A DNA stretch of 64,000 nt from an uncultured Acidobacteriota bacterium (GTDB lineage: Bacteria > Acidobacteriota > UBA6911): the NCBI GenBank assembly GCA_963809485.1, contig CAWEJX010000006.1:32001-96000 (forward strand), in the 5' to 3' direction. The stretch's first letter is position 1. Each line of letters opens with the position of its first letter. The position numbers were made by a program, and so were the translations under genes. A model generated the notes under the pieces. The model searched no databases and was not told the origin of the DNA. It saw only the letters and a program-made list of their open reading frames with translations. Of the stretch, positions 1,880 through 15,250 are shown in pieces.

Positions 1880-3925
1880 TTGAAGGAAAGGCAGCTGATA
1901 AGCTCGATCTGTCCTTACTGTGGATGTGGCTGCGGATTGTATCTTTGTGTTGAGGACGGAGTAGCCAAGAACATAGAATACATGGAGGACCATCCTGTAA
2001 CCGGAGGGGCTCTCTGCCCCAAGGGCAACGCCGCACTCGAGGTGATCTATCACCCGGAGCGGCTCCAATATCCAATGAAGAGACAGGGTGGTGATTGGGT
2101 AAAAATCAGTTGGGAAGAAGCGCTCGGCATGCTGGCGGATCAACTGGCGCGCATCCAGAAAACCCACGGCGCCGACGCCCTGGGCTTTTTGGCCTCAGCG
2201 AAATGCACGAATGAGGAAAATTACCTTTTCCAGAAATTAGCCCGGCTGATCGGCACAAACAATATCGACCACTGCGCCCGCCTCTGTCATGCCCCCACGG
2301 TGACCGGCCTGGTCTCCACACTGGGAAGCGGGGCGATGACAAACCCCATCCCCGACATCATCAACGCGAACTGTATTCTTATTATCGGCGCAAACCCCGC
2401 CGAGGACCATCCGATCATCAGCGGATGGATCTGGGACGCCAAGGAACAGGGCGCCAAGGTCATCGTGGTGGATCCGCGGCACACGCCCACCGCCTGGATG
2501 GCGGATAAATTCATTCAACTGAAACCAGGCACCGACATCGCCCTGATCAACGGCATAATCCACGTCATCCTCAAAGAGGGGCTGTATAACAAAGAGTTTG
2601 TGGAGGCGCGTACCACCGGTTTTGCCCAGATCCAGGAGCTTGCGGCCAAATACGATCCGGCGAGTGTCGAGAAGCTCACGGGCGTACCGAGCCATCAGCT
2701 TGAAGAGGTAGCCCGGCTTTATGCAAAATCGGCGGCCTCCTCAATTATCTACTGCATGGGGATTACGCAGCATTCCTCGGGGCACCAGCACGTTGTCAGT
2801 CTGTCCAATCTGGCGTTGATCTGCGGGCACATAGGGCGGCCCGGGACGGGCATGTTGCCGCTCAGGGGGCAAAATAATGTTCAGGGCGCTTGCGATATGG
2901 GCGGCTTGAACTCTTTCTTCCCCGGTTATGTGCGGGTTACAGATGAAGAGGGCAGAAGGCGGTTGGCCGAAAAATGGGGCGCAAAAGGCTTGCCTGGCGA
3001 ACCGGGGCTCACCGTGGTTGAAATGATCAATGCCGCCGGCGAAGGCAAAATCAAGGGCATGTACATCATGGGGGAAAACCCCGTTATCAGCGATCCGGAC
3101 TCCAATCATGTCGAAGAAGCTTTGAGCCGGCTCGAGTTCCTTGCGGTTCAGGACTTGTTCCTCTCCGAGACCGCCAAGCTGGCGCACCTGGTCCTTCCTG
3201 CTGCCAGCTGGGCGGAGAAGGAGGGGTCGTTTACGGGAACGGAACGGCGCGCCCAATGGATGCACAGGGCCATTGAGCCTCAGAGCGGCACCAAGACGGA
3301 CTGGCAAATCGTCAGCGAGGTCGCTAAAAGGCTGGGCTTCAATTTCAATTATGCCGGTCCACAGGATATCCTAAGGGAGATAAATGGGGTTGTCCCACAA
3401 TACGCCGGGATCACTCCGGAACGGATTTCACACCGGATAGGCGGCCTCACATGGCCCTGCCCTACCCCCGAACATCCCGGCACGCCCATTCTGCATGTTG
3501 AACGGTTCGCGACCCCGGACGGACTGGGCAGATTGATTCCGGTCGAGTATAAACCACCGGCGGAGGAAACAAACAGTGAGTATCCCCTGTTATTGACCAC
3601 CGGGCGGGTAGTGATGCACTACAACTCCGGCTCCATGACCAGGAGAAGCAAGGCCCTGCTTAAGCGAAGCCCCGGTCTGTTTGTCGAGATCAACCCGGGC
3701 GACGCCGAAACAGCCAAAATTAAAAACAATGAGGAGGTAAAAGTGCTGACCAAGCGCGGTGAGGCTTCGGCTGTGGCCAGCGTCACCGACAAGGTGCCTC
3801 CCGGCATAGTTTTCGTGCCTTTCCACTTTGAGGGAGCCAATGCCCTAACGATAAGCGCTTTGGACCCTGTAGCCAAAATTCCGGAATATAAGGTTGCCGC
3901 CTGCCGCATTGAAAAGAGGTCATAG
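1880..3925 (+). CDS. fdhF: Formate dehydrogenase alpha subunit (Mo/W-bisPGD, FdhF-like), Cys at the catalytic site
   Basis: CPYCGCGC 4Fe-4S motif, GTNNIDHCARLCHAPT (TGT codon at the Sec/Cys position), PLRGQNNVQGACDMG, molydopterin-binding C-terminus IPEYKVAAC; no Tat signal; GAGGAGG RBS before a TTG start. Confidence 0.93.
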   Translation: MKERQLISSICPYCGCGCGLYLCVEDGVAKNIEYMEDHPVTGGALCPKGNAALEVIYHPERLQYPMKRQGGDWVKISWEEALGMLADQLARIQKTHGADALGFLASAKCTNEENYLFQKLARLIGTNNIDHCARLCHAPTVTGLVSTLGSGAMTNPIPDIINANCILIIGANPAEDHPIISGWIWDAKEQGAKVIVVDPRHTPTAWMADKFIQLKPGTDIALINGIIHVILKEGLYNKEFVEARTTGFAQIQELAAKYDPASVEKLTGVPSHQLEEVARLYAKSAASSIIYCMGITQHSSGHQHVVSLSNLALICGHIGRPGTGMLPLRGQNNVQGACDMGGLNSFFPGYVRVTDEEGRRRLAEKWGAKGLPGEPGLTVVEMINAAGEGKIKGMYIMGENPVISDPDSNHVEEALSRLEFLAVQDLFLSETAKLAHLVLPAASWAEKEGSFTGTERRAQWMHRAIEPQSGTKTDWQIVSEVAKRLGFNFNYAGPQDILREINGVVPQYAGITPERISHRIGGLTWPCPTPEHPGTPILHVERFATPDGLGRLIPVEYKPPAEETNSEYPLLLTTGRVVMHYNSGSMTRRSKALLKRSPGLFVEINPGDAETAKIKNNEEVKVLTKRGEASAVASVTDKVPPGIVFVPFHFEGANALTISALDPVAKIPEYKVAACRIEKRS

Positions 3926-3927
3926 AG

Positions 3928-4431
3928 GTGAAGAAGGTTCTTTACATTGATATAAAGCGCTGTATCTATTGCCGCTCGTGTGAGGTTGCCTGTGAGCGTG
4001 AGCATGAGGGGCATTCACATATGAATGTTGTGCCTATCCATGGAAGGCACGCTGTCCCGATGAATTGCCGCCATTGTGAAAAGCATCCGTGCCTGACGGT
4101 TTGTCCAACGAAGGCCATCACGCGGGAAGAGGGCGGTCCTGTCATCATCCACACCATGAAATGCATCGGCTGCCGAATGTGCGCCATGGTGTGTCCGTTT
4201 GGGATTCTCAACTTTGACGTCCTTGGACGAGTCATGCGGAAATGCGACCTGTGCATTCATCGCCTCAGCGAAGGCAAAAACCCCGCCTGTGTCACCACCT
4301 GCCCGGCTCGCGCGTTGGTATTTGATGACTTCGATTCGATAATGTCGAGAACCAAGGAGAAAGCAGCCCACGCTGTAATCAGCGGAGTGGGGTCACAGCC
4401 GGGTACGGTGATCATCCCACCGAAAGGCTAA
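3928..4431 (+). CDS. 4Fe-4S dicluster electron-transfer subunit (HycB/HyfA/HydN-like)
   Basis: CIYCRSCEVAC, CRHCEKHPCLTVCP, CIGCRMCAMVCP, KCDLC...PACVTTCP. Confidence 0.9.
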   Translation: MKKVLYIDIKRCIYCRSCEVACEREHEGHSHMNVVPIHGRHAVPMNCRHCEKHPCLTVCPTKAITREEGGPVIIHTMKCIGCRMCAMVCPFGILNFDVLGRVMRKCDLCIHRLSEGKNPACVTTCPARALVFDDFDSIMSRTKEKAAHAVISGVGSQPGTVIIPPKG

Positions 4432-4459: not shown

Positions 4460-6148
4460 ATGCTGTTTTATGCAAGATACCAAAAAAGTGCTGTCGTAAG
4501 AGAATCGGTTGACCAACTCGTCCGGAAATTCCCGCAAGCCGTTCTCAAAACCGAAATGGTGGATTCACAAACCGTTTCCGTAAACATAATCCCCTCCGCC
4601 ATCCAAGGCGTTTGCAAAGAAATTTACGACCAGGGCGCCCGATTTGTCTCCTCCGCGGCTACCGATCAGATCAGGAAAAACAACACGCTCGAGCTTAGCC
4701 ATTTCTTTTCTTTTGATGAGGAGCACCTGACCTGTATCGTCAAGACCCAGATCGATGCTGCAGCCCCATCGGCCCAATCCATTTCCTCCATTATCCCGGG
4801 GGCAAACTGGGCCGAGCGTGAATGCCAGGATCTGTTGGGGATTGAATTCGTTGATCATCCGGATTCAAGAAGACTCATTCTGGCCGATGATTGGCCGAAA
4901 GGGGTTCATCCGCTAAGGAAGGATTTCCCTTATAACTACAAGCCGCCATCGGCGCCCGAAAACGCAGTCATCCTTAAGGCGCCGGATCCCCCGGCAAGTG
5001 TCGTGCCAATCGGCCCGTTCTACCCGGTCCTCGAAGAACCGGCATATTTCAGGGTTTTCGTCGAAGGCGAAAAGATAACCGGTTGTGATTATCGGGGATT
5101 CCACAATCACCGGGGCATTGAAAAGTTGGGCGACAGCTCGATGACCTATAACGAGGTGTGCTTTCTCGCAGAGCGCATATGAGGGATATGAGGATATATA
5201 CACAGTACGTGCTACTGTGAGGCCATCGAAAACGCAGCAAACATAGAAGTCCCCCAAAGAGCCCGCTTTATCCGGACTCTGCTCCTGGAGCTGGAAAGAA
5301 TCCACAGCCACCTTCTCTGGCTTGGTATCGCCGGGCATATCATCGGCTTTGACACGATCTTGATGCAGGCATGGCGAGTGCGCGAGCCGATAATGTGGCT
5401 TTGCGAGCTCATCACCGGCAATCGCAAAACCTACGGCATGAATCTGGTCGGGGGCGTGCGGCGGGACATCACCAAGGAGCAAAAGCCCAAGATCCTTGAA
5501 GTCGTCGGCAAAATCGAGTCCCAGCTGAAGGAGATCATCGACGCTATTCTGGGTGACACGACTCTCCATCTGCGGCTCAAAGACGTGGGGGTTCTGACAA
5601 AAGAAACCGCGCGGCAATTCTGCCCCGTCGGTCCAACGGTGCGTGGTTCAGGCATTGCCATCGACAGCCGTGTGAACCACCCCTATGCGGCTTATTCAGA
5701 AATACCGCCTCAGGTAATAACCCAATCGGAGGGAGATATCTGGGCGCGAACCATTGTCAGACTGCTGGAAACGCTCGAATCTGTCAACATGGTAAGGCGA
5801 GCCGTGCAGGAAATGCCCGGTGGCGAGATTATGGCGGACGTCCAGGAAATCCCCCCCTGGCAAGAGGGCATCTCATACATCGAGGCTCCGCGCGGGGAGT
5901 GCATGCACTATGTGATAACGGGTCCCGATAACCGGCCTCACCGATGGCGCGTGCGGGCGCCCAGCTATATGAATCTGCAATCCGTTCCTGCCATGCTTAT
6001 GGGGTATTCCATCGCGGACGCGCCCATAATCATCGGCAGCATCGATCCGTGCTTTTCCTGCACCGAGCGGCTTGAGGTGGTGGACACCAGAACCAATAAG
6101 GCTAGGATTTACACCCAGAAAGAATTGCTGGCGCTCAGTAAGAGATAA
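4460..6148 (+). CDS. hycE: Group 4 [NiFe]-hydrogenase large subunit (HycE/HyfG-like, NuoC+NuoD fusion) with two in-frame TGA codons, predicted Sec241 and Sec244
   Basis: ORFs 4460..5182 and 5360..6148 share a frame and are joined by FLAERI*GI*GYIHSTCYCEAIE...ELERIHSHLLWLG. C-terminal motif DPCFSCTER is followed by a cleavable tail. 562 aa with read-through. Confidence 0.92.
5201..5219 (+). promoter_or_regulatory. Putative bacterial SECIS hairpin
   Basis: Perfect 7-bp stem CACAGTA/TACTGTG with loop CGTGC (G at loop position 2). The loop starts 16 nt after the second TGA and 25 nt after the first. Confidence 0.75.
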
Positions 6149-6153
6149 GAACC

Positions 6154-6675
6154 ATGCTGCTAAGCAAACTCAAAGAGGCGCTGATCTGTTTTAAAAACCT
6201 GCGGGTGACCTTGCCTTACCCCTTCCAGCCTGCGCCGCCTCCTCCGGGATTCAGAGGACGGGTGGAGGTTGACATCAATAAATGCATCGGTTGCGCCGCC
6301 TGCGCCGTAGCTTGCCCGCCAAAGCTGATTGACATCAAGGACCTGGATGGCAAGCGCATCCTTGAGTTTCGGATGGGGAGATGCACCTACTGTGCCCGGT
6401 GCGCCGAGGTCTGTCCCACAGTCGCCATCACCATGACCCCGGACTTTGAACTGGCTACCGATAACAAGGCCGACCTGAACATCAGCGTGGAGTTAAACAT
6501 GGTGAAGTGCGAGCACTGCGGAGATGCCTTCACCACCCAGCGCATCATGCACAAGCTGGTGGCTGAAGCGTCCAAAGAATTGGGCATGGAACCTGCCGAC
6601 ATGAAGTGGCTCCATTTATGTCCCGAATGCCGCGTTGCTTCGGAGGTTGAAAAAATGATGGAGGCGGAAAGCTAA
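6154..6675 (+). CDS. hycF: Hydrogenase Fe-S subunit (HycF/HyfH/NuoI-like)
   Basis: TLPYPF...FRGR, CIGCAACAVACP, CTYCARCAEVCP, C-terminal CEHC...CPEC. Confidence 0.88.
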   Translation: MLLSKLKEALICFKNLRVTLPYPFQPAPPPPGFRGRVEVDINKCIGCAACAVACPPKLIDIKDLDGKRILEFRMGRCTYCARCAEVCPTVAITMTPDFELATDNKADLNISVELNMVKCEHCGDAFTTQRIMHKLVAEASKELGMEPADMKWLHLCPECRVASEVEKMMEAES

Positions 6676-6678
6676 GGC

Positions 6679-8145
6679 ATGAATGGCTTAATGGCAAGCC
6701 TCATACTAATACCGATGGCAGGGGCTTTCCTCAGCTATCCCTTAAAGTCCCGTACGGGCGACAGGATACCGGCCCTGGCGGCCGGTATCACTTTTATTAT
6801 CGCGATCGTCTCAATAGTTTTGGGTTATCCCCGCACGAACCAAACCTTCGTAGGCCAACTCCCCTGGCTTGAAACCAAAGTCCAGCTCTTTGGATTTCTT
6901 CTGGATCCCCTAAGCTCATTAATGCTTATTGTAATCACCGCCATCGGCGTGCTGGTGGTTATCTATTCCTCCGAATACCTGAGCCCCAGAAACAAAGACC
7001 ACGCATATTCGGAGGCTAAAGGGAGTTACTACTTCTGGCTGCTGTTGTTTATTGGTTCTATGGTGGGTATCGCGGTCTCCCCGAGTTTTCTGCAGCTTTT
7101 TATGTTCTGGGAGATGACCACCATGTGTTCCTGGGCGCTCATCTCTTACCATAAGGACAGCAAGTCCCTGTTTAGCGGATTCAAGGCACTGCTTTTGACT
7201 CACCTGGGCGGTGCAGCGCTTCTCACCGCCCTGGCGATTCTTTTTGTGAACACGGGATCGCTGGCCTTCAACGCCCTGGACAGTCTGACGCCCAATACGA
7301 GATTGGCTGTCTTCCTGTTGATTGTGGTAGCCGCCTGGGCCAAGGCGGCTCAGATTCCGTTCTACACCTGGCTGCCCGATGCCATGGCAGCTCCGACGCC
7401 GATCAGCGCCTATCTTCATGCCGCTGCTATGGTCAAGGCGGGCGTTTACCTGGTAGCGCGGGTGGCCGTATCGAATGCCGAAATCCCTCACACTGGGGGA
7501 ATGATATTGGGCATCATGGCCGTGATCACCATGATTGTGGCCGTCATCATGTACTTTTTCCAAGACGACCTGAAACGGCTGCTTGCCTTTTCCACCATCG
7601 GGCATTTGGGCTATATCCTCTTTGGCGTCTCGCTTGGAATCATGGGCTCCAACACCGGCCTGCAAGGCGGCATTCTGCACATTATCAACCATGGCTGCGC
7701 CAAAGGCCTGTTGTTCCTGTCCGTCGGCGCTATAGCCTATGCTACGGGTTCCAGGAGCATAAAGGAGTTGAGTGGTCTGGGCAGCAAGTTGCCCGTGATT
7801 TCAATGGGATTTATCATCGGCCTTTTTGCCGTGACCGGAGTGCCGCCCCTCTCCTGTTTCTGGAGCAAGTTTATGATGTTCACCGGCGCTTTTGAAATTG
7901 GCGGAGTTGCCGGACCCGTTATGGGAGTGCTGGCGATAGCGGAAAGTCTGGCGGCCTTCGCATGGTACCTGCTGGTGGGACAAAAAGTGTTTTTTGGAAA
8001 AGTTTCGGAAAGGGCGGATACGGCTACCAGGAATATTTCACCGCTGATTACCGTGCCGCTGATCATTCTGATGGCATTATGCTTTTTGGCGCCCTTGATC
8101 GGATGGCCGTTCGTGCAATATCTGAAGATAGGAATATTTCACTGA
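6679..8145 (+). CDS. hyfD: Hydrogenase-4 antiporter-like membrane subunit D
   Basis: FWEMTTMCSWALISY, KALLLTHLG, AWAKAAQIPFYTWLPDAMAAPTPISAYLHAAAMVKAG, closely resembling HyfD. Confidence 0.85.
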   Translation: MNGLMASLILIPMAGAFLSYPLKSRTGDRIPALAAGITFIIAIVSIVLGYPRTNQTFVGQLPWLETKVQLFGFLLDPLSSLMLIVITAIGVLVVIYSSEYLSPRNKDHAYSEAKGSYYFWLLLFIGSMVGIAVSPSFLQLFMFWEMTTMCSWALISYHKDSKSLFSGFKALLLTHLGGAALLTALAILFVNTGSLAFNALDSLTPNTRLAVFLLIVVAAWAKAAQIPFYTWLPDAMAAPTPISAYLHAAAMVKAGVYLVARVAVSNAEIPHTGGMILGIMAVITMIVAVIMYFFQDDLKRLLAFSTIGHLGYILFGVSLGIMGSNTGLQGGILHIINHGCAKGLLFLSVGAIAYATGSRSIKELSGLGSKLPVISMGFIIGLFAVTGVPPLSCFWSKFMMFTGAFEIGGVAGPVMGVLAIAESLAAFAWYLLVGQKVFFGKVSERADTATRNISPLITVPLIILMALCFLAPLIGWPFVQYLKIGIFH

Positions 8146-8167: not shown

Positions 8168-10234
8168 ATGGGCCCAGTAGTGTTTTTATTTATCGGATTT
8201 CTGCTTCTTGTTGCAGGGGCTGTGCTGGCCATGGCGACCCATCGGTCGCGTTTGGTTTGCTCATGGCTTTCTTTTTCCTTCGTTTTGCCGGCGGCAGGGT
8301 GTTTTCTGTATCTGGCCATCCTGGTCTTCACCCATGGCCCGATTACGATGCCCGCGCCGTTGCTCGTCCTGCCTGGAATTGGAGCCGGTCTCACCATTGC
8401 TATTGATCCGCTCTCGGCTCTGCTGCTTCTAATCGTGGGCATAATTTCCACGTGCACGACCCTTTTCTCAGTCAAATACACACTGCGCTATCAGGGTGAA
8501 TCGCTGATTCGCTATTATCCTTTCCTTTTGCTGCTCTTTGCTTCTATCGTCGGCGTTGTTTGCACCCGCGACATGCTTTTCCTCATCGCCTTCTGGGAAA
8601 TAATGACCCTAACCTCTTACGCCTTGGTGGTGTTTGAGCGGGGCAACACGGTCGGCCTGAAAGCGGGATTCACGTATTTCCTGGCGACTCACATAGCTAC
8701 TGCCTGCCTGATCATTGCGGCGATTATGCTCTATATCAGAACACCGGCGCCGCACTCGTTCGCTTTCGAGAGTATCAGCGCATCGCTTGGAACAATGATG
8801 GCGGCTCATTCTGGCCTGGCCCATCTGGTTCTGGCTCTGTTTTTCATCGGTTTTGTCACCAAGGCGGGCGTTCTGCCTTTCGGCTTCTGGCTCCCGGACA
8901 CCTATCCCGCGGCGCCCAGCGGCGCCTCAGCGGCCTTTGCGGGAACCATGACCAAGCTGGGTGTCTATGGCGTGGTCCGTGTTTTCTGTGAGATTCTGCC
9001 CATATCCCATCATTCTTACGTATGGGGACAGGTCATTGCCGTTTTGGGCACTCTCTCCATTTTTGTCGGCACCCTGTCGGCCCTGGTTCAAGATGACTCG
9101 AAGAGACTCATGTCCTTCCATGTTATCGGGCAGATCGGATATATGCTTCTCGGAATCGGCCTGGGCGTATTTTTGCTGCCGGTGAATCCGCCTCTGGCCA
9201 CGATAGCGCTCGTCAGCGGCATCTTTCACCTGCTCAACCACACGATGTACAAGTCGTGCCTCTTCCTCAATGCCGGCTCGATTCTTTACCGGACGGGGAC
9301 TCGCGATTTGAACAAGGTCGGCGGGTTATTGAGAATAATGCCGTTCACGGGGGCTACCGCTATCATCGCGTCGTTATCGATTGCCGGCCTTCCGCCTTTC
9401 AGCGGCTTTTCCAGCAAACTGCTCATTTTTGAAGCCTCTATAATAAGCGGAGTAGGATCGCCCCTTTTTATTGTCCTCGGCCTGATTGCCATCTTTATTT
9501 CAGCGGTCACGCTGGCCTCTTTCCTGAAGTTCCTGAACACCGCTTTTTTGGGGAAACTTTACGCCGAGGGAGGGATAAATGATCTAAAGGATGTCCCTCT
9601 CTCAATGAAAATACCTCAGGGCGTGCTGGCTTTCCTGTGCATCTTTTTTGGTGTGGTGCCCCTGTTGCCCATCCGGATGATACACAGCGCGGTCAGCTCT
9701 ATACTGCCGGCAAATTACTCGCCGGCGGCGGGCTCTCTCTTTGGAACATCCATGCCCGGGTTTAGCCTGGATCTGGGGCAGGGAGTTTTTGGCACCTGGA
9801 ATCCCCTTTGGGCTTTGATTGCCATTACGATCCTTTTTGCTTTTGGGTTCCTGATATCCAGGGCCGGGGTAGCACGGAAAAGGGAGGCAGAGACGTGGTA
9901 CGGGGGCAGGGATCACGAGGTGGAACATGTCCGCTACCCGTCGCACAGCTTCTACATCCCTTTCAAACAGCTGTTTTCCTTTACTCTTGGGAATACCAGG
10001 TTTGAAGGGATGTACCCCAAGTCCCTCGAATTGCCCAAGTTGGCCGTGCCCGGTGGACTAAAAGCGGTGCTGGATATCGACCGCTGGCTCTACTATCCCT
10101 TTGTCAGCGGCTTTATGAGGCTGAGCCGGTGGTTCAGCCGAATCCATGTGGGAATACCGCAGGTCTATGTGTTATGGATCATCATGGGAGTAATCGCCTG
10201 TATCATCGTTCTTTTCCTGTTGCCGGCGAATTAA
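8168..10234 (+). CDS. hyfB: Hydrogenase-4 antiporter-like membrane subunit B (HycC/HyfB-like)
   Basis: 688 aa polytopic protein; KAGVLPFGFWLPDTYPAAPS, GLPPFSGFSSK, C-terminal amphipathic arm with HVGIPQVYV. Confidence 0.82.
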   Translation: MGPVVFLFIGFLLLVAGAVLAMATHRSRLVCSWLSFSFVLPAAGCFLYLAILVFTHGPITMPAPLLVLPGIGAGLTIAIDPLSALLLLIVGIISTCTTLFSVKYTLRYQGESLIRYYPFLLLLFASIVGVVCTRDMLFLIAFWEIMTLTSYALVVFERGNTVGLKAGFTYFLATHIATACLIIAAIMLYIRTPAPHSFAFESISASLGTMMAAHSGLAHLVLALFFIGFVTKAGVLPFGFWLPDTYPAAPSGASAAFAGTMTKLGVYGVVRVFCEILPISHHSYVWGQVIAVLGTLSIFVGTLSALVQDDSKRLMSFHVIGQIGYMLLGIGLGVFLLPVNPPLATIALVSGIFHLLNHTMYKSCLFLNAGSILYRTGTRDLNKVGGLLRIMPFTGATAIIASLSIAGLPPFSGFSSKLLIFEASIISGVGSPLFIVLGLIAIFISAVTLASFLKFLNTAFLGKLYAEGGINDLKDVPLSMKIPQGVLAFLCIFFGVVPLLPIRMIHSAVSSILPANYSPAAGSLFGTSMPGFSLDLGQGVFGTWNPLWALIAITILFAFGFLISRAGVARKREAETWYGGRDHEVEHVRYPSHSFYIPFKQLFSFTLGNTRFEGMYPKSLELPKLAVPGGLKAVLDIDRWLYYPFVSGFMRLSRWFSRIHVGIPQVYVLWIIMGVIACIIVLFLLPAN

Positions 10235-10238
10235 AGGA

Positions 10239-11147
10239 ATGAGATTTGTAATTGGCATCAGCATATTAAACCTGTTTGTCGCCCTGGGCCTTTCGCCGCT
10301 GTTTGAGGGCCTGGCCAGGAAACTCAAGGCCCTGGTGCATTCCCGCATCGGCCCGCCCGTAATCCAGCCCTACTACGACTTGCTGAAACTGGCAGGGAAA
10401 GAAGACCTCCAGCCGAAGGGCATGCCTTTCGCCCGGTTTCTTCCCGGGATTTGCTTTGTTACGGTGGCTGTGGCAGCCCTATTCGTACCGATGGGCACCG
10501 GCAGAGCTCCCCTGGGAACCGCCGGGGATTCCATGTTCTTTATCTACATCGTTACTTTGGTTGCCGTAAGCATGATCATGACCGCGGCGGCGTCGGAAAA
10601 TCCGTTCTCTTATATCGGCGCATCGAGGGAAGTGATGCTGCAACTGACGGTGGAGCCGGTGATGGTGATCGCCCTGGTCACGGCTGCCTTGAATGCCCGT
10701 TCCTTCGGTTTTGGTGATATGGTGGATTGGTATCACTTCAGCGGTCCCTCGATTTCAATGATCATCGCCACAATCTCCCTTTTCCTGGCGCTTCAGGCAC
10801 AGGTAGGCAAGCTGCCTTTTGACATGGCTGAAGCTGAAACTGAGATAGCGGGCGGATTATTTATCGAGCAAAGCGGTCCCAAATACGCGCTTCTGCGGTG
10901 GACGATGATGGCGAAGCAGGTCATCTTCGCCTCCCTTTTCGTGCAAGTTTTCATCCCCTGGCCGAGAACGGGGAATCTGGCTTGGGATGTCCCAATTCAC
11001 CTGGCCAAGGTTCTTGTGTTGGTGGCGATCATCAGTGTCATCGATACGGTCAATCCCCGGCTCAGGATTGACCAGGCAGTGAGATATTATCTGATATTGG
11101 TTTTCTTCTCACTGGCCGGTATTGCCTTTGCCGTTATCGGCGCCTAG
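10239..11147 (+). CDS. hyfC: NuoH-like membrane subunit (HycD/HyfC)
   Basis: SRIGPPVIQPYYDLLKL, IGASRE, KLPFDMAEAETEI. Confidence 0.88.
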   Translation: MRFVIGISILNLFVALGLSPLFEGLARKLKALVHSRIGPPVIQPYYDLLKLAGKEDLQPKGMPFARFLPGICFVTVAVAALFVPMGTGRAPLGTAGDSMFFIYIVTLVAVSMIMTAAASENPFSYIGASREVMLQLTVEPVMVIALVTAALNARSFGFGDMVDWYHFSGPSISMIIATISLFLALQAQVGKLPFDMAEAETEIAGGLFIEQSGPKYALLRWTMMAKQVIFASLFVQVFIPWPRTGNLAWDVPIHLAKVLVLVAIISVIDTVNPRLRIDQAVRYYLILVFFSLAGIAFAVIGA

Positions 11148-11167: not shown

Positions 11168-11848
11168 ATGGTTGAGAGCATTGCTCTGGGGGACTTCATT
11201 GTCACCCTGTATCTGATCCATTTTGGATTTTCGCTGCTTGCGGCCGAGCTGCGCAACCTGAAATGGTCTGTCGCTGCTATCGTGGTGCAATCCCTGACGT
11301 TATCCGGCATACTCATTACTTTCGCCAGCATTGGGTCCAACCCCTCATTGTACTGGTGGGGTTTTACTACACTGGGAACCAAGGTCTTCGCAATTCCCTA
11401 TTTGTTGTGGCTTTATATCCGTCGTTTGCCGACCGCCGAGACTCGTCCGTGGCTGGGAACAATTCCTTCTGTGGGAGTTATGCTGGTTCTTGTTGTTGTA
11501 TTCTACAACTTCCTGCATACCCATGTGGAATTTATCGCCCCCAGCCTGGAGGCAGCCCTTGAGCCGGCCAGGTCGAATCTGGCGCTTTCTTTAACAATTT
11601 GTGCCTTGGGATTGTGGGTGCTTCTGGTGCGGAGGGATGCTGTCAAAGCCGTCATCGGCCTGGTCTTGTTGGAAAACGGCGTTCACCTTGCGCTGGTGAC
11701 CCTGGCGCCTACCTTACCTGAGACCACGCTGATCGGCATCGTCACCAATGTCATCATTACCGTTTGGCTCCTTCTGTATCTTGCGGGCAGGATTTTCAAG
11801 GTTCTGGGGACGACCGACACCGCGGTGCTGTCCGAACTGAAGCATTAG
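11168..11848 (+). CDS. hyfE: Hydrogenase-4 membrane subunit E (NuoK-like C-terminus)
   Basis: TKVFAIPYLL, VIGLVLLENGVHL, TTDTAVLSELK. Confidence 0.85.
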   Translation: MVESIALGDFIVTLYLIHFGFSLLAAELRNLKWSVAAIVVQSLTLSGILITFASIGSNPSLYWWGFTTLGTKVFAIPYLLWLYIRRLPTAETRPWLGTIPSVGVMLVLVVVFYNFLHTHVEFIAPSLEAALEPARSNLALSLTICALGLWVLLVRRDAVKAVIGLVLLENGVHLALVTLAPTLPETTLIGIVTNVIITVWLLLYLAGRIFKVLGTTDTAVLSELKH

Positions 11849-11863
11849 CCGAAAAATGGAATA

Positions 11864-13375
11864 ATGGAAAGCTCAAGAGAAGTAACCTCTATATTGCCGG
11901 TTCTGGTATTTGCATTGCCCGCAGGCGTCGCCATCCTAATTTTCGCTCTCGGGCGGTTGCACGCCATCTTCCGTGAAGGCCTTGCCCTTTTAGGCCTGGC
12001 AGCCACATTTTTGGTCTCGCTGGCCATCTCAGGGCGGGTGCTGCACGGGGAACTCCTGATAGCCTGGGGACGCAATCTGTATGTCGACGGGTTGAGCGCT
12101 CTAATGGAGACGCTCGGCTCCGCTATGGCCATAATAATTGTCTTGTACTCTACCAGGTACTTGACACAGCACCAGATCGGCATGCCGCTGAATCCTTGGC
12201 GGCACACATATTTTTATGGGTTGCTGGTACTGTTTGTGGCTACTCTCAATTGGACTTGTGCCACCAACAGCCTTATCTGGATGTGGGTCTCGCTGGAAGC
12301 AACCACGCTCACATCGGCGCTTCTGGTGACCTTCTACTGGAAACGGGAATCCATGGAGGCAGGATACAAATACCTGCTTTTGATAAGCGTGGGAGTGACC
12401 CTGGCGCTGTTGGGCTGCGTCCTTATTTACGCGGCAGCCATTCCGCTTCTGCCGGGACCTCATGTGATGCTTCTCACTGAAATTGGCAGGATCGCCAAAA
12501 TGATGCCGGAAAGCGTTGTGCTGATAGCCTGCGCCATGTTTGTGGCGGGTTTCGGCACCAAGGCGGGACTTATCCCGTTTCATGCCTGGCTTCCCGACGC
12601 CCATTCCGAAGCGCCGGTTCCTGTCAGCGCGCTGCTCTCCGGCGTGGTGATCAAGATCGGGGCTTATGCCCTTGCGCGCACCGTTACCATTTTCGCTCCC
12701 CACTATGCCGCTGTGGTCCTCTTCGTCGCCATTCTGGCCTCGGTCAGTATGGTGATCGGCATCGTCATGGCGCTGGTTCAGGACGATCTCAAGAGGCTTT
12801 TAGCCTATTCCAGCATCAGCCAGATTGCCTATGTGATTGAGGGTCTGGGACTGGGCACCTACCTGGGAATCTATGGCGGGCTATTTCACATGGTCAATCA
12901 TGCCATCGTAAAGGCCTTGCTGTTCCTCTGCGCCGGAGCCTTGATGTACGCCGCCGGCACGAGGGAAATAAGCAAGCTGGGCGCGGTGGCAAAAAAAATG
13001 CCGGTGACCACGTTTTGCTTTTTCGTCGGCGCCCTTGCGATTGGGGGTATGCCGCCGTTCAACTGCTTTATGAGCAAGGTGACGATTTTCTTTGCACTGG
13101 CCGAGCGAGGAATACTCTGGGCTGCAATTATAGGAATAGCGACGGGAATACTCACCGTGGCCTGTTTTGCCTGGACTGCCTTCAGGATATTCTGGCAGAA
13201 GCCGACGGCGGAACCGAATCCTGACACAGAGGTGAAGCAAGTGCCGGTCCTCATGCAGGCCAGCATGCTGGTTTTGGCGTTTGCTTGTATTCTTTTAGGG
13301 ATCTATCCCCGAATGCTCTATCCCGTGTTGAACACCGCTACCGAAAGCATACTTAGAATTTTAGGGGCAGGGTAA
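11864..13375 (+). CDS. hyfF: Hydrogenase-4 antiporter-like membrane subunit F
   Basis: MWVSLEATTLTSALLV, EAGYKY, GFGTKAGLIPFHAWLPDAHSEAPVPVSALLSG. Confidence 0.87.
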   Translation: MESSREVTSILPVLVFALPAGVAILIFALGRLHAIFREGLALLGLAATFLVSLAISGRVLHGELLIAWGRNLYVDGLSALMETLGSAMAIIIVLYSTRYLTQHQIGMPLNPWRHTYFYGLLVLFVATLNWTCATNSLIWMWVSLEATTLTSALLVTFYWKRESMEAGYKYLLLISVGVTLALLGCVLIYAAAIPLLPGPHVMLLTEIGRIAKMMPESVVLIACAMFVAGFGTKAGLIPFHAWLPDAHSEAPVPVSALLSGVVIKIGAYALARTVTIFAPHYAAVVLFVAILASVSMVIGIVMALVQDDLKRLLAYSSISQIAYVIEGLGLGTYLGIYGGLFHMVNHAIVKALLFLCAGALMYAAGTREISKLGAVAKKMPVTTFCFFVGALAIGGMPPFNCFMSKVTIFFALAERGILWAAIIGIATGILTVACFAWTAFRIFWQKPTAEPNPDTEVKQVPVLMQASMLVLAFACILLGIYPRMLYPVLNTATESILRILGAG

Positions 13376-13381
13376 ACAGTT

Positions 13382-14254
13382 ATGCTGAAAAAACCCCCCA
13401 TTGCATTTGCCATCGTCAGCCTGCTCGCATTGCTGTCAGGTTGTATCGCGCCTGCCCCGCCGAAACCCGGCAAAAAGCTGGTTACGATCTGCGTCCAGCC
13501 AATATATTCTCTGCATGTAATGACACAGAAGTACTCGCCCCTTTTTCGATATCTTGCCGATGAAACAGGGTATGACATAAGGGTTGTCTCGGCGATGAGC
13601 TATGATAGTTATCTGCCCACACTGGAGAGCAACCAGGTCCATCTGGGGATTCAGAATCCGCTGGCCTATATCACATTGGTCAAGACCAGGGGCGCGCATC
13701 CCCTGGCAAAGATGGTTGAATTGAATGGGAGTACCTTATATCGCGGTATAATCATTGCACGTAAAGACAGCGGCATACAAAAAATAGAGGATTTGAGGGG
13801 CCAGACAGCCGCCGCCTCCTCCCGCAGGGCGATCGGGGGATTCTTTGCTCAGGCCTATCACTGCAGGCAGCATGGCCTGGATGTCAACAAAGATCTTCGA
13901 CTCTTCCTGGTGGACACTCAGGATGCTGTTGTCAATGCCGTCTATCAAGGAAAAGTGAAGGTGGGTTTTGTGAGGGAGGACGCTTTGCCGCCTGCAAAAG
14001 AAGGAACAGACTTAAAGGCGATTACGGTTATCGCCCATACGGACTATTATCCGACATGGTGCGTAGCAGCTTTCGCCGAAACACCCCCGGAGGTTGAGCG
14101 AGAGATAACCAAGGCGCTTTTGAATCTCGACCCGGGAAATCCGGGACACCGCGGCGTATTGGCATCGATCGGGATCGCCGGGTTTCAGGAGGCATCGGAC
14201 CTCGATTACGACATACTACGAAAAGCCATGGACGGTTTGAGTCTTCCGTACTAG
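13382..14254 (+). CDS. PhnD/PtxB-family (phosphate/phosphite/phosphonate-type) substrate-binding lipoprotein with no cognate permease or ATPase in the window
   Basis: Lipobox LLSGC; PLFRYLADETG, YRGIIIARKDSGIQKIEDLRG, QDAVVNAVYQG. Confidence 0.8.
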   Translation: MLKKPPIAFAIVSLLALLSGCIAPAPPKPGKKLVTICVQPIYSLHVMTQKYSPLFRYLADETGYDIRVVSAMSYDSYLPTLESNQVHLGIQNPLAYITLVKTRGAHPLAKMVELNGSTLYRGIIIARKDSGIQKIEDLRGQTAAASSRRAIGGFFAQAYHCRQHGLDVNKDLRLFLVDTQDAVVNAVYQGKVKVGFVREDALPPAKEGTDLKAITVIAHTDYYPTWCVAAFAETPPEVEREITKALLNLDPGNPGHRGVLASIGIAGFQEASDLDYDILRKAMDGLSLPY

Positions 14255-14267
14255 GGAAGGTTGCGGC

Positions 14268-14768
14268 ATGCTGAAATCTCTGATCCAAAAGATAACAGGA
14301 AAGGCTTTCACGAAGGCACTCTGGGTTTACCATGTCAACACAGGGGCCTGCAACGGATGTGATATTGAGGTCATTGATGTCTTGACTCCTTATTACGATG
14401 CGGAACGGTTTGGGATCAAGCTGGTAGGTTCGCCCCGGCAGGCCGATGTCCTTCTCGTTTCCGGACCGGTGACTCGACAGATAGCCTCAGGCCTCCTCAA
14501 AGTATATGAGGCTACGCCCGAACCCAAGCTGGTCTTTGCCATCGGCTCCTGCGCAATCGACGGGAATATTTTTCATGACAGCTATAACGTAATCGGCGGC
14601 GTGGACAAGGTAATTCCCGTGCATTTATACATCCCCGGTTGTCCCCCACGACCGGAGGCTATCCTTTATGGCGTGGCCCAGGCCCTGGGCCTGGTGCCCA
14701 AGAAGGTTAAAGCAGTCCGGTTGACGCAGGAAGGCGATGGGGCGCCCGCCAACTTGCCCCCGAAATGA
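14268..14768 (+). CDS. hycG: Hydrogenase small subunit (HycG/HyfI/NuoB-like)
   Basis: NTGACNGCDIE, SPRQADVLLVSGPVT, GSCA, IPGCPPRP. Confidence 0.92.
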   Translation: MLKSLIQKITGKAFTKALWVYHVNTGACNGCDIEVIDVLTPYYDAERFGIKLVGSPRQADVLLVSGPVTRQIASGLLKVYEATPEPKLVFAIGSCAIDGNIFHDSYNVIGGVDKVIPVHLYIPGCPPRPEAILYGVAQALGLVPKKVKAVRLTQEGDGAPANLPPK

Positions 14769-15250
14769 AGACACTGGAGTCGCTGTTTCGGAAAATGGGC
14801 CCCAAGTTTGTGCTGCTGGGCGTGGGGAATCCCTTACGCGGAGATGACGGCGCGGGACCGGAATTATTGCGACGCCTCAGGAACAAAACGAGCGCCATCC
14901 TGCTTGATTGCGAAGAAGTTCCCGAAAACTATCTTGGTGAGATCGCGGCAATTCAGCCTGAAACCGTTGTTGTCATTGACGCCGTGAATCTCGGAACCGG
15001 AGCCGGTGCGGTAGCGCTATTGGAAGAAGACAACTTCCAGTCCATCGGCTGGTCGACACACCATGGTTCCCTGAGAGCGCTGGTCCAATATATTAAGGCG
15101 ACCACACAGGCTGAGGTTTTCGTTCTGGGAATCCAGCCGAAGTCGACAGAACTGGGCGGCGAGCTAAGTCCCGAGGTCACACAGACGATTGACCTATTGC
15201 AGGAGATCATCACAACGCATTCTGTTTCAGGTGAACCGCCCCGTCTCTAG
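14765..15250 (+). CDS. hycI: Hydrogenase maturation endopeptidase
   Basis: GVGNPLRGDDGAG, EVPEN, IDA, STH motifs; ATGA overlap with the upstream gene. Confidence 0.9.
   Translation: MKTLESLFRKMGPKFVLLGVGNPLRGDDGAGPELLRRLRNKTSAILLDCEEVPENYLGEIAAIQPETVVVIDAVNLGTGAGAVALLEEDNFQSIGWSTHHGSLRALVQYIKATTQAEVFVLGIQPKSTELGGELSPEVTQTIDLLQEIITTHSVSGEPPRL

Follow-up and report, generated by a model that had tools for sequence, protein, structure and literature searches.

Can a hydrogenase gene carry selenocysteine (Sec) codons at both N-terminal cysteine positions of its nickel-iron site, and is each of these codons really read as Sec? The question is raised by a gene of the window, the whole stretch of 64,000 nucleotides (nt) that was analysed here, from an uncultured Acidobacteriota bacterium (lineage UBA6911; assembly GCA_963809485.1, contig CAWEJX010000006.1, positions 32,001 to 96,000). 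This gene encodes the large subunit of a group 4 [NiFe] hydrogenase of HycE/HyfG type and is interrupted by two in-frame TGA codons. An earlier reading, made from the sequence alone, had interpreted it as a UxxU, i.e. di-Sec, group 4 hydrogenase (U standing for Sec and C for Cys in such formulae). The Sec machinery of the source genome, the homologues, purifying selection and a candidate hairpin all support this interpretation. The probability that both UGAs (codons 241 and 244) are read as Sec can be put at about 80%, the choice between Sec and Cys being drawn from sequence comparison.

A hydrogenase gene with two in-frame TGA codons

The gene and the positions on which the argument turns are the following.

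4460-6148, + strand: HycE/HyfG-type group 4 hydrogenase large subunit, a fusion of NuoC-like and NuoD-like parts (Pfam, alignment to 7z0s_E)
5180-5182, + strand: UGA1, codon 241, at the first Cys of RxCGxC, the terminal Ni ligand position (alignment to 7z0s_E)
5189-5191, + strand: UGA2, codon 244, at the second Cys of RxCGxC, the Ni-Fe bridging ligand position (alignment to 7z0s_E)
6044-6061, + strand: C-terminal Ni-binding motif DPCFSC, residues 529-534, with Cys 531 and Cys 534 encoded by TGC (translation)

The gene is a single frame of 562 codons running from the ATG at 4460 to the TAA at 6146-6148. Its only internal stops are the two TGAs, which lie in the context E-R-I-stop-G-I-stop-G-Y-I-H (codons 238-248). 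Genetic code table 11 splits it into two open reading frames (ORFs), 4460-5182 and 5360-6148. The product read through the TGAs matches the Pfam families PF00329 (Complex1_30kDa, 92.7 bits), PF00346 (Complex1_49kDa, 211.1 bits) and PF00374 (NiFeSe_Hases, 58.3 bits), this last match covering the N-terminal part of the Ni-dependent hydrogenase family. The closest solved structure is E. coli HycE (7z0s_E, E 2.6e-134), on whose CGIC the TGAs fall. Both ligand motifs of HycE/HyfG (RxCGxCxxxH and DPCxxCxxR/H) are thus present, with TGA instead of TGY as the N-terminal ligand codons. At the other end, DPCFSC is followed by TER (DPCFSCTER, residues 529-537) and by a tail of 25 residues.

No Sec codon of the classical, C-terminal type is found, DPCFSC being encoded with TGC, and the HysA model NF045518 gives 52 bits for a cut-off of 780. 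More generally, none of the NCBIfam models reaches its cut-off on the large subunit. This accords with the name 'NADH-quinone oxidoreductase subunit C' borne by Cys-type relatives in databases. The ERI[C/U]GI[C/U]G Sec clades are assigned to group 4b by Takano, Inoue, Aono, Ochi and Mihara (PMC13582414).

The sequence-only reading had described a large subunit broken solely by these two TGAs, their position on both cysteines of the N-terminal motif (L1), an ordinary DPCFSC with a tail, and an otherwise intact gene and operon. Re-reading of the frame and alignment to the CGIC of HycE confirm the first two points. Cys 531 and Cys 534 are in place with 25 residues beyond TER, the other genes of the 12-gene cluster are intact and the downstream part of the gene is constrained.

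Sec and Cys codons at the same two positions in relatives

The genomes of relatives examined were 61, counting the source genome (G000); 28 of them have a match at E <=1e-60, and 20 loci were compared over residues 201-300. Two of these loci carry TGA on both sides of GI (G000 and G001), two read CGI followed by TGA (G022 and G016) and the 16 others read CGIC. G001, from the same genus as G000, has a gene that is 83% identical to that of the window, with both TGAs, and identical to locus L108. The CGI-TGA genes of G022 (L023) and G016 (L025), also from this genus, share no more than 55-56% identity with the window gene. One further match, in G043, holds one TGA at 32% identity.

Two pattern scans extend this picture. 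Both require the ERI and GI contexts and miss RV or GV variants, so that their counts are lower bounds. The exact pattern ERI[C/U]GIUG was sought in 185,579 species genomes and the best 80 of 87 stretches were classified. These comprise at least 50 HycE-like loci, namely at least 12 UxxU and at least 38 CxxU, the latter being the commoner type. The remainder of the best 80 consists of 29 chance matches with no hydrogenase match and one NuoD-like locus without the motif (L111). Among the matches listed, UxxU loci are labelled as Acidobacteriota, Armatimonadota, Thermodesulfobacteriota, 'delta proteobacterium', Chloroflexota-labelled metagenome-assembled genomes and two Proteobacteria. The metagenome scan used the pattern ERI[C/U]GI[C/U]GYIHST, with Cys or Sec codons permitted at both sites. 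It returned 30 loci of the GYIHST subfamily, of which 28 are UxxU, one is UxxC (L159) and one is CxxC (L149).

Thus, TGA occupies the UGA1 position in G001, in at least 12 species-genome loci and in 29 of the 30 metagenome loci. At the UGA2 position it is found in 50 of 50 HycE-like loci among the matches listed and in 28 of the 30 metagenome loci. Such a recurrence of identical TGA positions in independent assemblies is not due to chance. Furthermore, both TGAs are retained in the closest independent assemblies, L143 (984 nt at 93.8% nt identity) and L148 (1683 nt at 91.1%), which in practice disposes of a sequencing error. Contigs from four sequencing runs were also compared; they come from relatives only, the best share of sampled words being 0.33 and none reaching half. 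Contigs of runs X2 and X3 span 5180-5191 (pieces 4885-5199 and 5171-5325). The 40 differences listed all lie outside 5180-5191; with 146 further ones beyond that list, this is not proof. A contig of an RNA library (X19) covers 5616-5823 with 7 differences; transcription is not thereby shown.

The protein databases give another image, since all of the 120 full-length relatives that show the motif are CxxC. A 121st protein, P0004 (729 aa), reads ERTGGVGG at the motif and extends into the sequence of the HycF-like gene; apparently its gene is of UxxU type and was called with TGA taken as Gly.

Two metagenome loci show what separates the variants. L149 is CxxC (TGT, TGC) and encodes the same protein as P0002. 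It is 97.7% identical to the UxxU locus L062 over 1737 nt (40 mismatches) and keeps the hairpin sequence described below. From the sequences, this pair is a case of very recent exchange at both ligand codons. L159, found on the minus strand of its contig (match at 5055-5092), is UxxC (TGA, TGT) with an intact frame of 576 codons. It is 85-86% nt identical to the UxxU genes L098 and L102 and falls inside the GYIHST clade. Among the sequences compared, the UGA1 position switches only between TGA and TGY. The series UxxU/UxxC/CxxU/CxxC suggests that exchange of Se and S at each ligand is evolutionarily labile. As a side observation, the read-through frame of the CxxU locus L064 stops after 277 codons, following ...GNRKTY; this early end could reflect another in-frame stop, a frameshift or a break in the assembly.

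A quick tree search, with SH-like approximate likelihood ratio (SH-aLRT) support only, places the window gene with other UxxU genes at 98-100% support; no order of gain and loss is claimed from it. The duplicates L108, L086 and L081, loci in which the motif is followed by fewer than 300 residues, Ech-like genes (Ser after the motif) and most CxxU loci of GSVH/GTVH type were left out, and the sequences of Takano et al. are not in the tree. The same-genus CxxU genes L023 and L025 stand beside Cys-type sequences, apart from the clade of the window gene. This suggests a separate origin of Sec in these genes or a horizontal transfer.

Purifying selection beyond the TGA codons

Ratios of non-synonymous to synonymous substitution rates (dN/dS) were used for the downstream part only, ungapped upstream values being possibly inflated by indels. 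For the window gene, this ratio is 0.072 against G001 (318 codons, dS 0.81), 0.052 against L148 (11 non-synonymous and 55 synonymous differences) and 0.088 against L143. The other pairs give similar figures: 0.097 for the two CxxU genes of G022 and G016, 0.076 for UxxU L062 against CxxC L149 and 0.078 for UxxC L159 against UxxU L098. With a dN/dS of 0.05-0.10 beyond the TGAs, the downstream part is translated and constrained, and a reading of the gene as a pseudogene fails.

Selenocysteine machinery and the search for a UGA-reading tRNA-Cys

The source genome (6.04 Mb in 21 contigs, 95.67% complete, 7.32% contamination) encodes what Sec insertion needs. A single tRNA-Sec is found (70.6 bits with Rfam), which ARAGORN calls tRNA-SeC; it has the anticodon tca, G73 and an acceptor stem of 8 bp. 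SelA (462.6 bits) and SelB (391.3 bits, cut-off 242) are present. SelD (L018, G000:C8:80982-81905) holds an in-frame TGA of its own, between AAG and ASK, followed by a 7-bp hairpin with the loop GGC whose first base lies 13 nt past the UGA. By its sequence, SelD is thus itself a predicted selenoprotein. The scan of this genome for other selenoprotein genes gave mostly wrong-frame noise, so that SelD provides the sole usable spacing from UGA to hairpin. A second molybdopterin oxidoreductase match (G000:C20:1207473-1208783, + strand) includes one TGA within the matched region; it may be a Sec-type formate dehydrogenase, the frame scan being too noisy to confirm this.

TGA is the commonest ordinary stop of this genome: of 3570 open frames with at least 300 codons, 1549 end in it, as do two genes within the hydrogenase cluster. 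A genome-wide reassignment of TGA is therefore excluded. In the literature, the chief caveat is tRNA-ReC (selC*), with which SelB can insert Cys at UGA. Neither a tRNA-ReC nor a tRNA-Cys with a UCA anticodon occurs among the 48 tRNAs found by ARAGORN in G000. Its two tRNA-Cys have gca anticodons and a canonical structure (76 nt, 7/5), and the only tca tRNA is tRNA-Sec. The ten sub-threshold matches to the Rfam tRNA-Sec model (RF01852) are all Ser, Leu, Tyr or Gly tRNAs. In the same way, G001 and G022 have one tRNA-SeC each and no second candidate at the Rfam cut-off.

The sequence-only reading had proposed to judge its interpretation by homologues, selection, Sec genes and a possible UCA-anticodon tRNA-Cys, and on each of these the outcome favours it. 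TGA is found at both positions in G001, at one in G022 and G016, and at one or both in many loci of the genome and metagenome scans. The dN/dS of the window gene beyond the TGAs is 0.052-0.088. The source genome has tRNA-Sec, selA, selB and a Sec-type selD, and no UCA-anticodon tRNA-Cys was found among its 48 tRNAs.

A candidate hairpin downstream of both UGA codons

Decoding of UGA as Sec calls for a selenocysteine insertion sequence (SECIS), for which one candidate lies just beyond the motif.

5201-5219, + strand: candidate SECIS hairpin CACAGUA-CGUGC-UACUGUG, 7 bp (folding, conservation)

It begins 9 nt past UGA2 and 18 nt past UGA1. Its loop G5209 (loop position 2) stands third in a Thr codon, ACG. 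The same hairpin is found at the equal register in 52 of 54 TGA-bearing genes, with standard core pairs in 45 of the 47 distinct 54-nt sequences. One pair is changed from UA to CG on both sides in three Armatimonadota sequences. None of the 10 Cys-type genes that were folded has a hairpin at this register. The UxxC locus L159, which is intact, constrained and carries the same hairpin, suggests that UGA1 could be decoded on its own at the 18-nt spacing.

The nucleotides next to the UGAs also differ between types. Ile is encoded just ahead of UGA2 by AUA in 44 of the 47 distinct sequences and by AUC in the other 3; among the Cys-type genes listed, the 9 that have Gly after the motif use AUC or AUU there (AUA in L032). 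GG follows directly 3' of both UGAs. These features may reflect an effect of codon context on recoding.

Weighing the readings of the two UGA codons

Several observations weigh against the decoding of both UGAs as Sec. The 91-nt segment that includes the hairpin is no more stable than its shuffled versions (z 0.32), 126 of 200 shuffles folding at least as well; as the segment is not unusually stable, thermodynamics alone gives the SECIS no support and conservation is relied on. Part of this conservation may itself be due to the conserved peptide HSTCYC. Covariation is thin: with a single two-sided change, in three related sequences, it supports the helix weakly, and the number of further pair types is reached by 500 of 500 shuffles. 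The same-genus CxxU genes L023 and L025 do not fit the helix and have a hairpin of their own, ACUCCAC-CGGGUAU-GUGGAGU, shifted by 2 nt. The 18 nt between UGA1 and the hairpin exceed the optimum of E. coli, which is roughly 11 nt. No tRNA-Sec exceeds the Rfam cut-off in the CxxU genome G016, which is 91% complete. Given the completeness and contamination of G000, a tRNA-ReC could sit in its unassembled part. Lastly, the published support for the class is purely in silico, the accessible text of Takano et al. containing no mention of 'mass spectrometry' (PMC13582414).

The reading that best survives beside Sec at both positions, while remaining unlikely, is that one or both UGAs are read as Cys, through tRNA-ReC (selC*) or another route, giving an ordinary four-Cys enzyme. 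Recoding of UGA to Cys by tRNA-ReC/selC*, which uses UGA, SECIS and SelB, was described by Vargas-Rodriguez et al. 2018 (cited in PMC13582414). Tolerance of Cys at both positions follows from CxxC L149, 97.7% identical to UxxU L062. Moreover, tRNA-ReC-like tRNAs are reported in nine UXXU genomes (5/5 Armatimonadota, 2/6 Desulfobacterota and 2/3 JAPLJL01), and the authors of that survey caution that, where tRNA-ReC is present, either UGA may be read as Cys (PMC13582414). However, this recoding needs a tRNA-Sec-shaped tRNA of Cys identity and none was found in G000, where the sole tca tRNA has the G73 and the shape of tRNA-Sec; in G001, the one match above the cut-off is tRNA-SeC. As far as the published totals allow one to infer, the other UXXU genomes, presumably including Acidobacteriota, lack tRNA-ReC (PMC13582414).

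It is still less probable that only UGA2 is efficiently read as Sec, UGA1 being decoded poorly or by a near-cognate tRNA as a selenium-dependent or translational throttle, with most ribosomes stopping at 240 residues. The distance of the hairpin from UGA1 (18 nt, against 9 nt from UGA2) and the greater number of CxxU than UxxU loci in species genomes (at least 38 against at least 12) would fit such a mechanism. Yet UGA1 is kept in 29 of the 30 metagenome loci, UxxC L159 is intact with a downstream dN/dS of 0.078, and the position alternates solely between TGA and TGY in the sequences compared; besides, the site would not survive a Ni ligand residue other than Cys or Sec. Finally, a pseudogene or an assembly or sequencing artefact, in which the TGAs would be plain nonsense, is most improbable: the split frame under table 11 and scores under every NCBIfam cut-off are all that speak for it, against the same two TGAs in many independent assemblies, a downstream dN/dS of 0.05-0.09 at dS up to 0.8, an intact remainder of the 12-gene cluster and TGAs that always lie, in the cases examined, exactly on the metal-site Cys codons.

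Sec at both positions thus remains the preferred reading. Beyond the decoding itself, the balance leans towards a true di-selenolate Ni-Fe site in which one hairpin serves two UGAs and Se/S is labile ligand by ligand, free of the tRNA-ReC ambiguity of most UXXU genomes published so far.

A possible path from UGA codons to a two-selenium site

If both UGAs are read as Sec, SelB with Sec-tRNA(Sec) would bind the hairpin and decode UGA1 at a spacing of 18 nt. A second ternary complex would decode UGA2 at a spacing of 9 nt, three codons further on, one hairpin presumably serving both UGAs. The mature site would then have Sec241 as terminal Ni ligand and Sec244 as Ni-Fe bridge, in addition to the two ordinary C-terminal cysteines. 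HycI would trim the C-terminal tail once the metal is inserted, as is established for HycE. The terminal and bridging roles of these N-terminal positions are described for E. coli 7Z0T (PMC13582414).

In the complex as a whole, formate would be oxidised by the Cys-type formate dehydrogenase (Fdh) encoded upstream. From there, electrons would reach the Ni-Fe site by way of the ferredoxin-like subunits and the NuoB-like small subunit, and protons would be reduced to H2 at this site. By analogy with the structure of the E. coli formate hydrogenlyase (FHL), the membrane arm, with its three antiporter-like subunits, would couple H2 evolution to ion translocation.

Relation to known selenium-containing hydrogenases

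The UXXU class of group 4 is already described in print, in the accessible text of Takano et al. (Front Microbiol 2026;17:1925269, September 2026; PMC13582414), an in silico study of Group 4 [NiFeSe] hydrogenases. It reports 47 non-redundant Sec variants, drawn from nine phyla, that all have their Sec in the N-terminal motif (27 are CXXU, 4 are UXXC and 16 are UXXU). UXXC is confined to group 4e and the phyla with UXXU include Acidobacteriota; an enrichment of selABCD is also reported, and a single SECIS for both UGAs proposed (PMC13582414). A May 2026 review of prokaryotic selenoproteomes, in the parts accessible, knows [NiFeSe] hydrogenases only from sulfate reducers and methanogens and UxxU motifs only in other families (PMC13188914). 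As it does not contain the group 4 Sec class, Takano et al. appears to be its first report. The earlier statement that no characterised example of this active site is known still holds for characterised enzymes; as to the class itself, it has been overtaken by this in silico description (PMC13582414).

The window gene resembles the group 4b UXXU members of this study in several respects. It has Sec codons at the two Cys positions of the N-terminal motif and nowhere else. It lies in a cluster of Fdh, ferredoxins, HyfC/HyfE-like subunits, several antiporter subunits and a small subunit. The G at loop position 2 of the SECIS is also the third base of a Thr ACG codon (PMC13582414). Nothing differs in kind, although the Fdh of the window retains the Cys-His pair that about half of theirs do not have (PMC13582414). 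Among the relatives gathered here, L159 is a UxxC gene of the GYIHST clade, whereas the UXXC of their set are found in group 4e only (PMC13582414).

Comparison with E. coli HycE (7z0s, 7z0t) shows the same NuoC-NuoD fusion, the L1 and L2 motifs, the C-terminal tail and the type of complex. However, HycE has four Cys ligands where the window gene has two TGA and two Cys codons. Like Hyf, the cluster of the window has three antiporter-like subunits. With the classical [NiFeSe] hydrogenases of groups 1 and 3 (Desulfovibrio HysA, Methanococcus Vhu/Fru), the window gene would share Sec as a Ni ligand in the large subunit. These enzymes have one Sec, at the first position of the C-terminal motif (PMC13582414), whereas the C-terminal motif of the window gene is all Cys and its two Sec codons are in the N-terminal one. 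The engineered group 1 enzymes of Evans et al. (2021 and 2024) show that catalysis can be compatible with Sec at any one of the four ligand positions (cited in PMC13582414). Those were single laboratory substitutions in an H2-uptake enzyme, in contrast to what would be here a natural double substitution in an H2-evolving enzyme of group 4.

The additions of the present analysis to Takano et al. are all minor. G000 joins the UxxU genomes as one with no detectable tRNA-ReC and a Cys-His Fdh. The near-identical CxxC/UxxU pair L149/L062, with its retained hairpin, and a UxxC member (L159) in the clade of the window gene are further additions. The class is also commoner than 47 sequences, with at least 50 species genomes and at least 29 metagenome contigs that have TGA at one or both positions.

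As the class was reported in silico in September 2026, the remaining value of the locus is experimental. G000, with no tRNA-ReC among the tRNAs found and an Fdh that appears catalytically competent from its sequence, looks like a favourable test case. Natural UxxU, UxxC, CxxU and CxxC relatives would be useful comparators, a near-isogenic series for the effect of Se at each position. If both UGAs are Sec, the enzyme would have a two-Se Ni-Fe site, with one Se bridging, in an H2-evolving and ion-translocating complex. We know of no report of two-Se Ni-Fe ligation in a characterised hydrogenase. Such a site would bear on O2 tolerance and on the bias towards H2 production. It would also mean that two UGAs three codons apart are recoded by one SECIS. 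Gene callers split such genes, as table 11 does with the window gene, or mistranslate them, as in P0004 where TGA is given as Gly.

The probable formate hydrogenlyase cluster

The large subunit belongs to a cluster whose other genes are the following.

1880-3925, + strand: formate dehydrogenase catalytic subunit, FdhF/FdhH-like, Cys-type (Pfam Molybdop_Fe4S4, Molybdopterin and Molydop_binding)
3928-4431, + strand: HycB-like 4Fe-4S ferredoxin subunit (Pfam Fer4_11 and related families)
6154-6675, + strand: HycF-like 2x[4Fe-4S] subunit (Pfam Fer4 families)
6679-8145, + strand: antiporter-like membrane subunit of hydrogenase 4 subunit D type (Pfam Proton_antipo_M; NF005097, 559 bits, cut-off 430)
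8168-10234, + strand: antiporter-like membrane subunit, top match hydrogenase 4 subunit B but under cut-off (Pfam, NCBIfam)
10239-11147, + strand: HycD/HyfC-like (NuoH-type) membrane subunit (Pfam NADHdh)
11168-11848, + strand: HyfE-like (NuoK-type) membrane subunit (Pfam Oxidored_q2)
11864-13375, + strand: antiporter-like membrane subunit, top match hydrogenase 4 subunit F but under cut-off (Pfam, NCBIfam)
13382-14254, + strand: periplasmic phosphonate-type ABC substrate-binding protein (Pfam PF12974, 186.7 bits)
14268-14768, + strand: HycG-like (NuoB-type) hydrogenase small subunit (Pfam Oxidored_q6; NF005012, 150.9 bits, cut-off 116)
14765-15250, + strand: HycI-type maturation endopeptidase (Pfam HycI; TIGR00072, 99 bits, cut-off 47)

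The identity of the system as a group 4 formate hydrogenlyase, put forward from the sequence alone, agrees with this content: Fdh, HycB, HycF, HycD, HyfE, three antiporter-like subunits, HycG and HycI are all in the cluster. By analogy, it would encode a complete Hyf-like (hydrogenase-4 or FHL-2-like) formate hydrogenlyase, its FHL activity being predicted from gene content. The gene at 1880-3925 matches the Fdh-alpha model TIGR01591 of NCBIfam with 864.9 bits (cut-off 666) and contains no in-frame TGA. Its motif CARLCHAPT aligns with ARLXHSAT of the best structure match, 9t1s_L, and is read as a Cys-type active site with a neighbouring His. This Cys-His pair presumably corresponds to the position of Sec140-His141 in E. 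coli FdhH.

The selenoprotein of the E. coli FHL is the formate dehydrogenase FdhH. The arrangement of selenium is reversed in the window, with a Cys-type Fdh (CARLCHAPT) and the Sec codons in the hydrogenase. One last particularity of the cluster is the gene of the ABC substrate-binding protein, which lies inside it, between the last antiporter-like gene and the NuoB-like gene, with short gaps on both sides.

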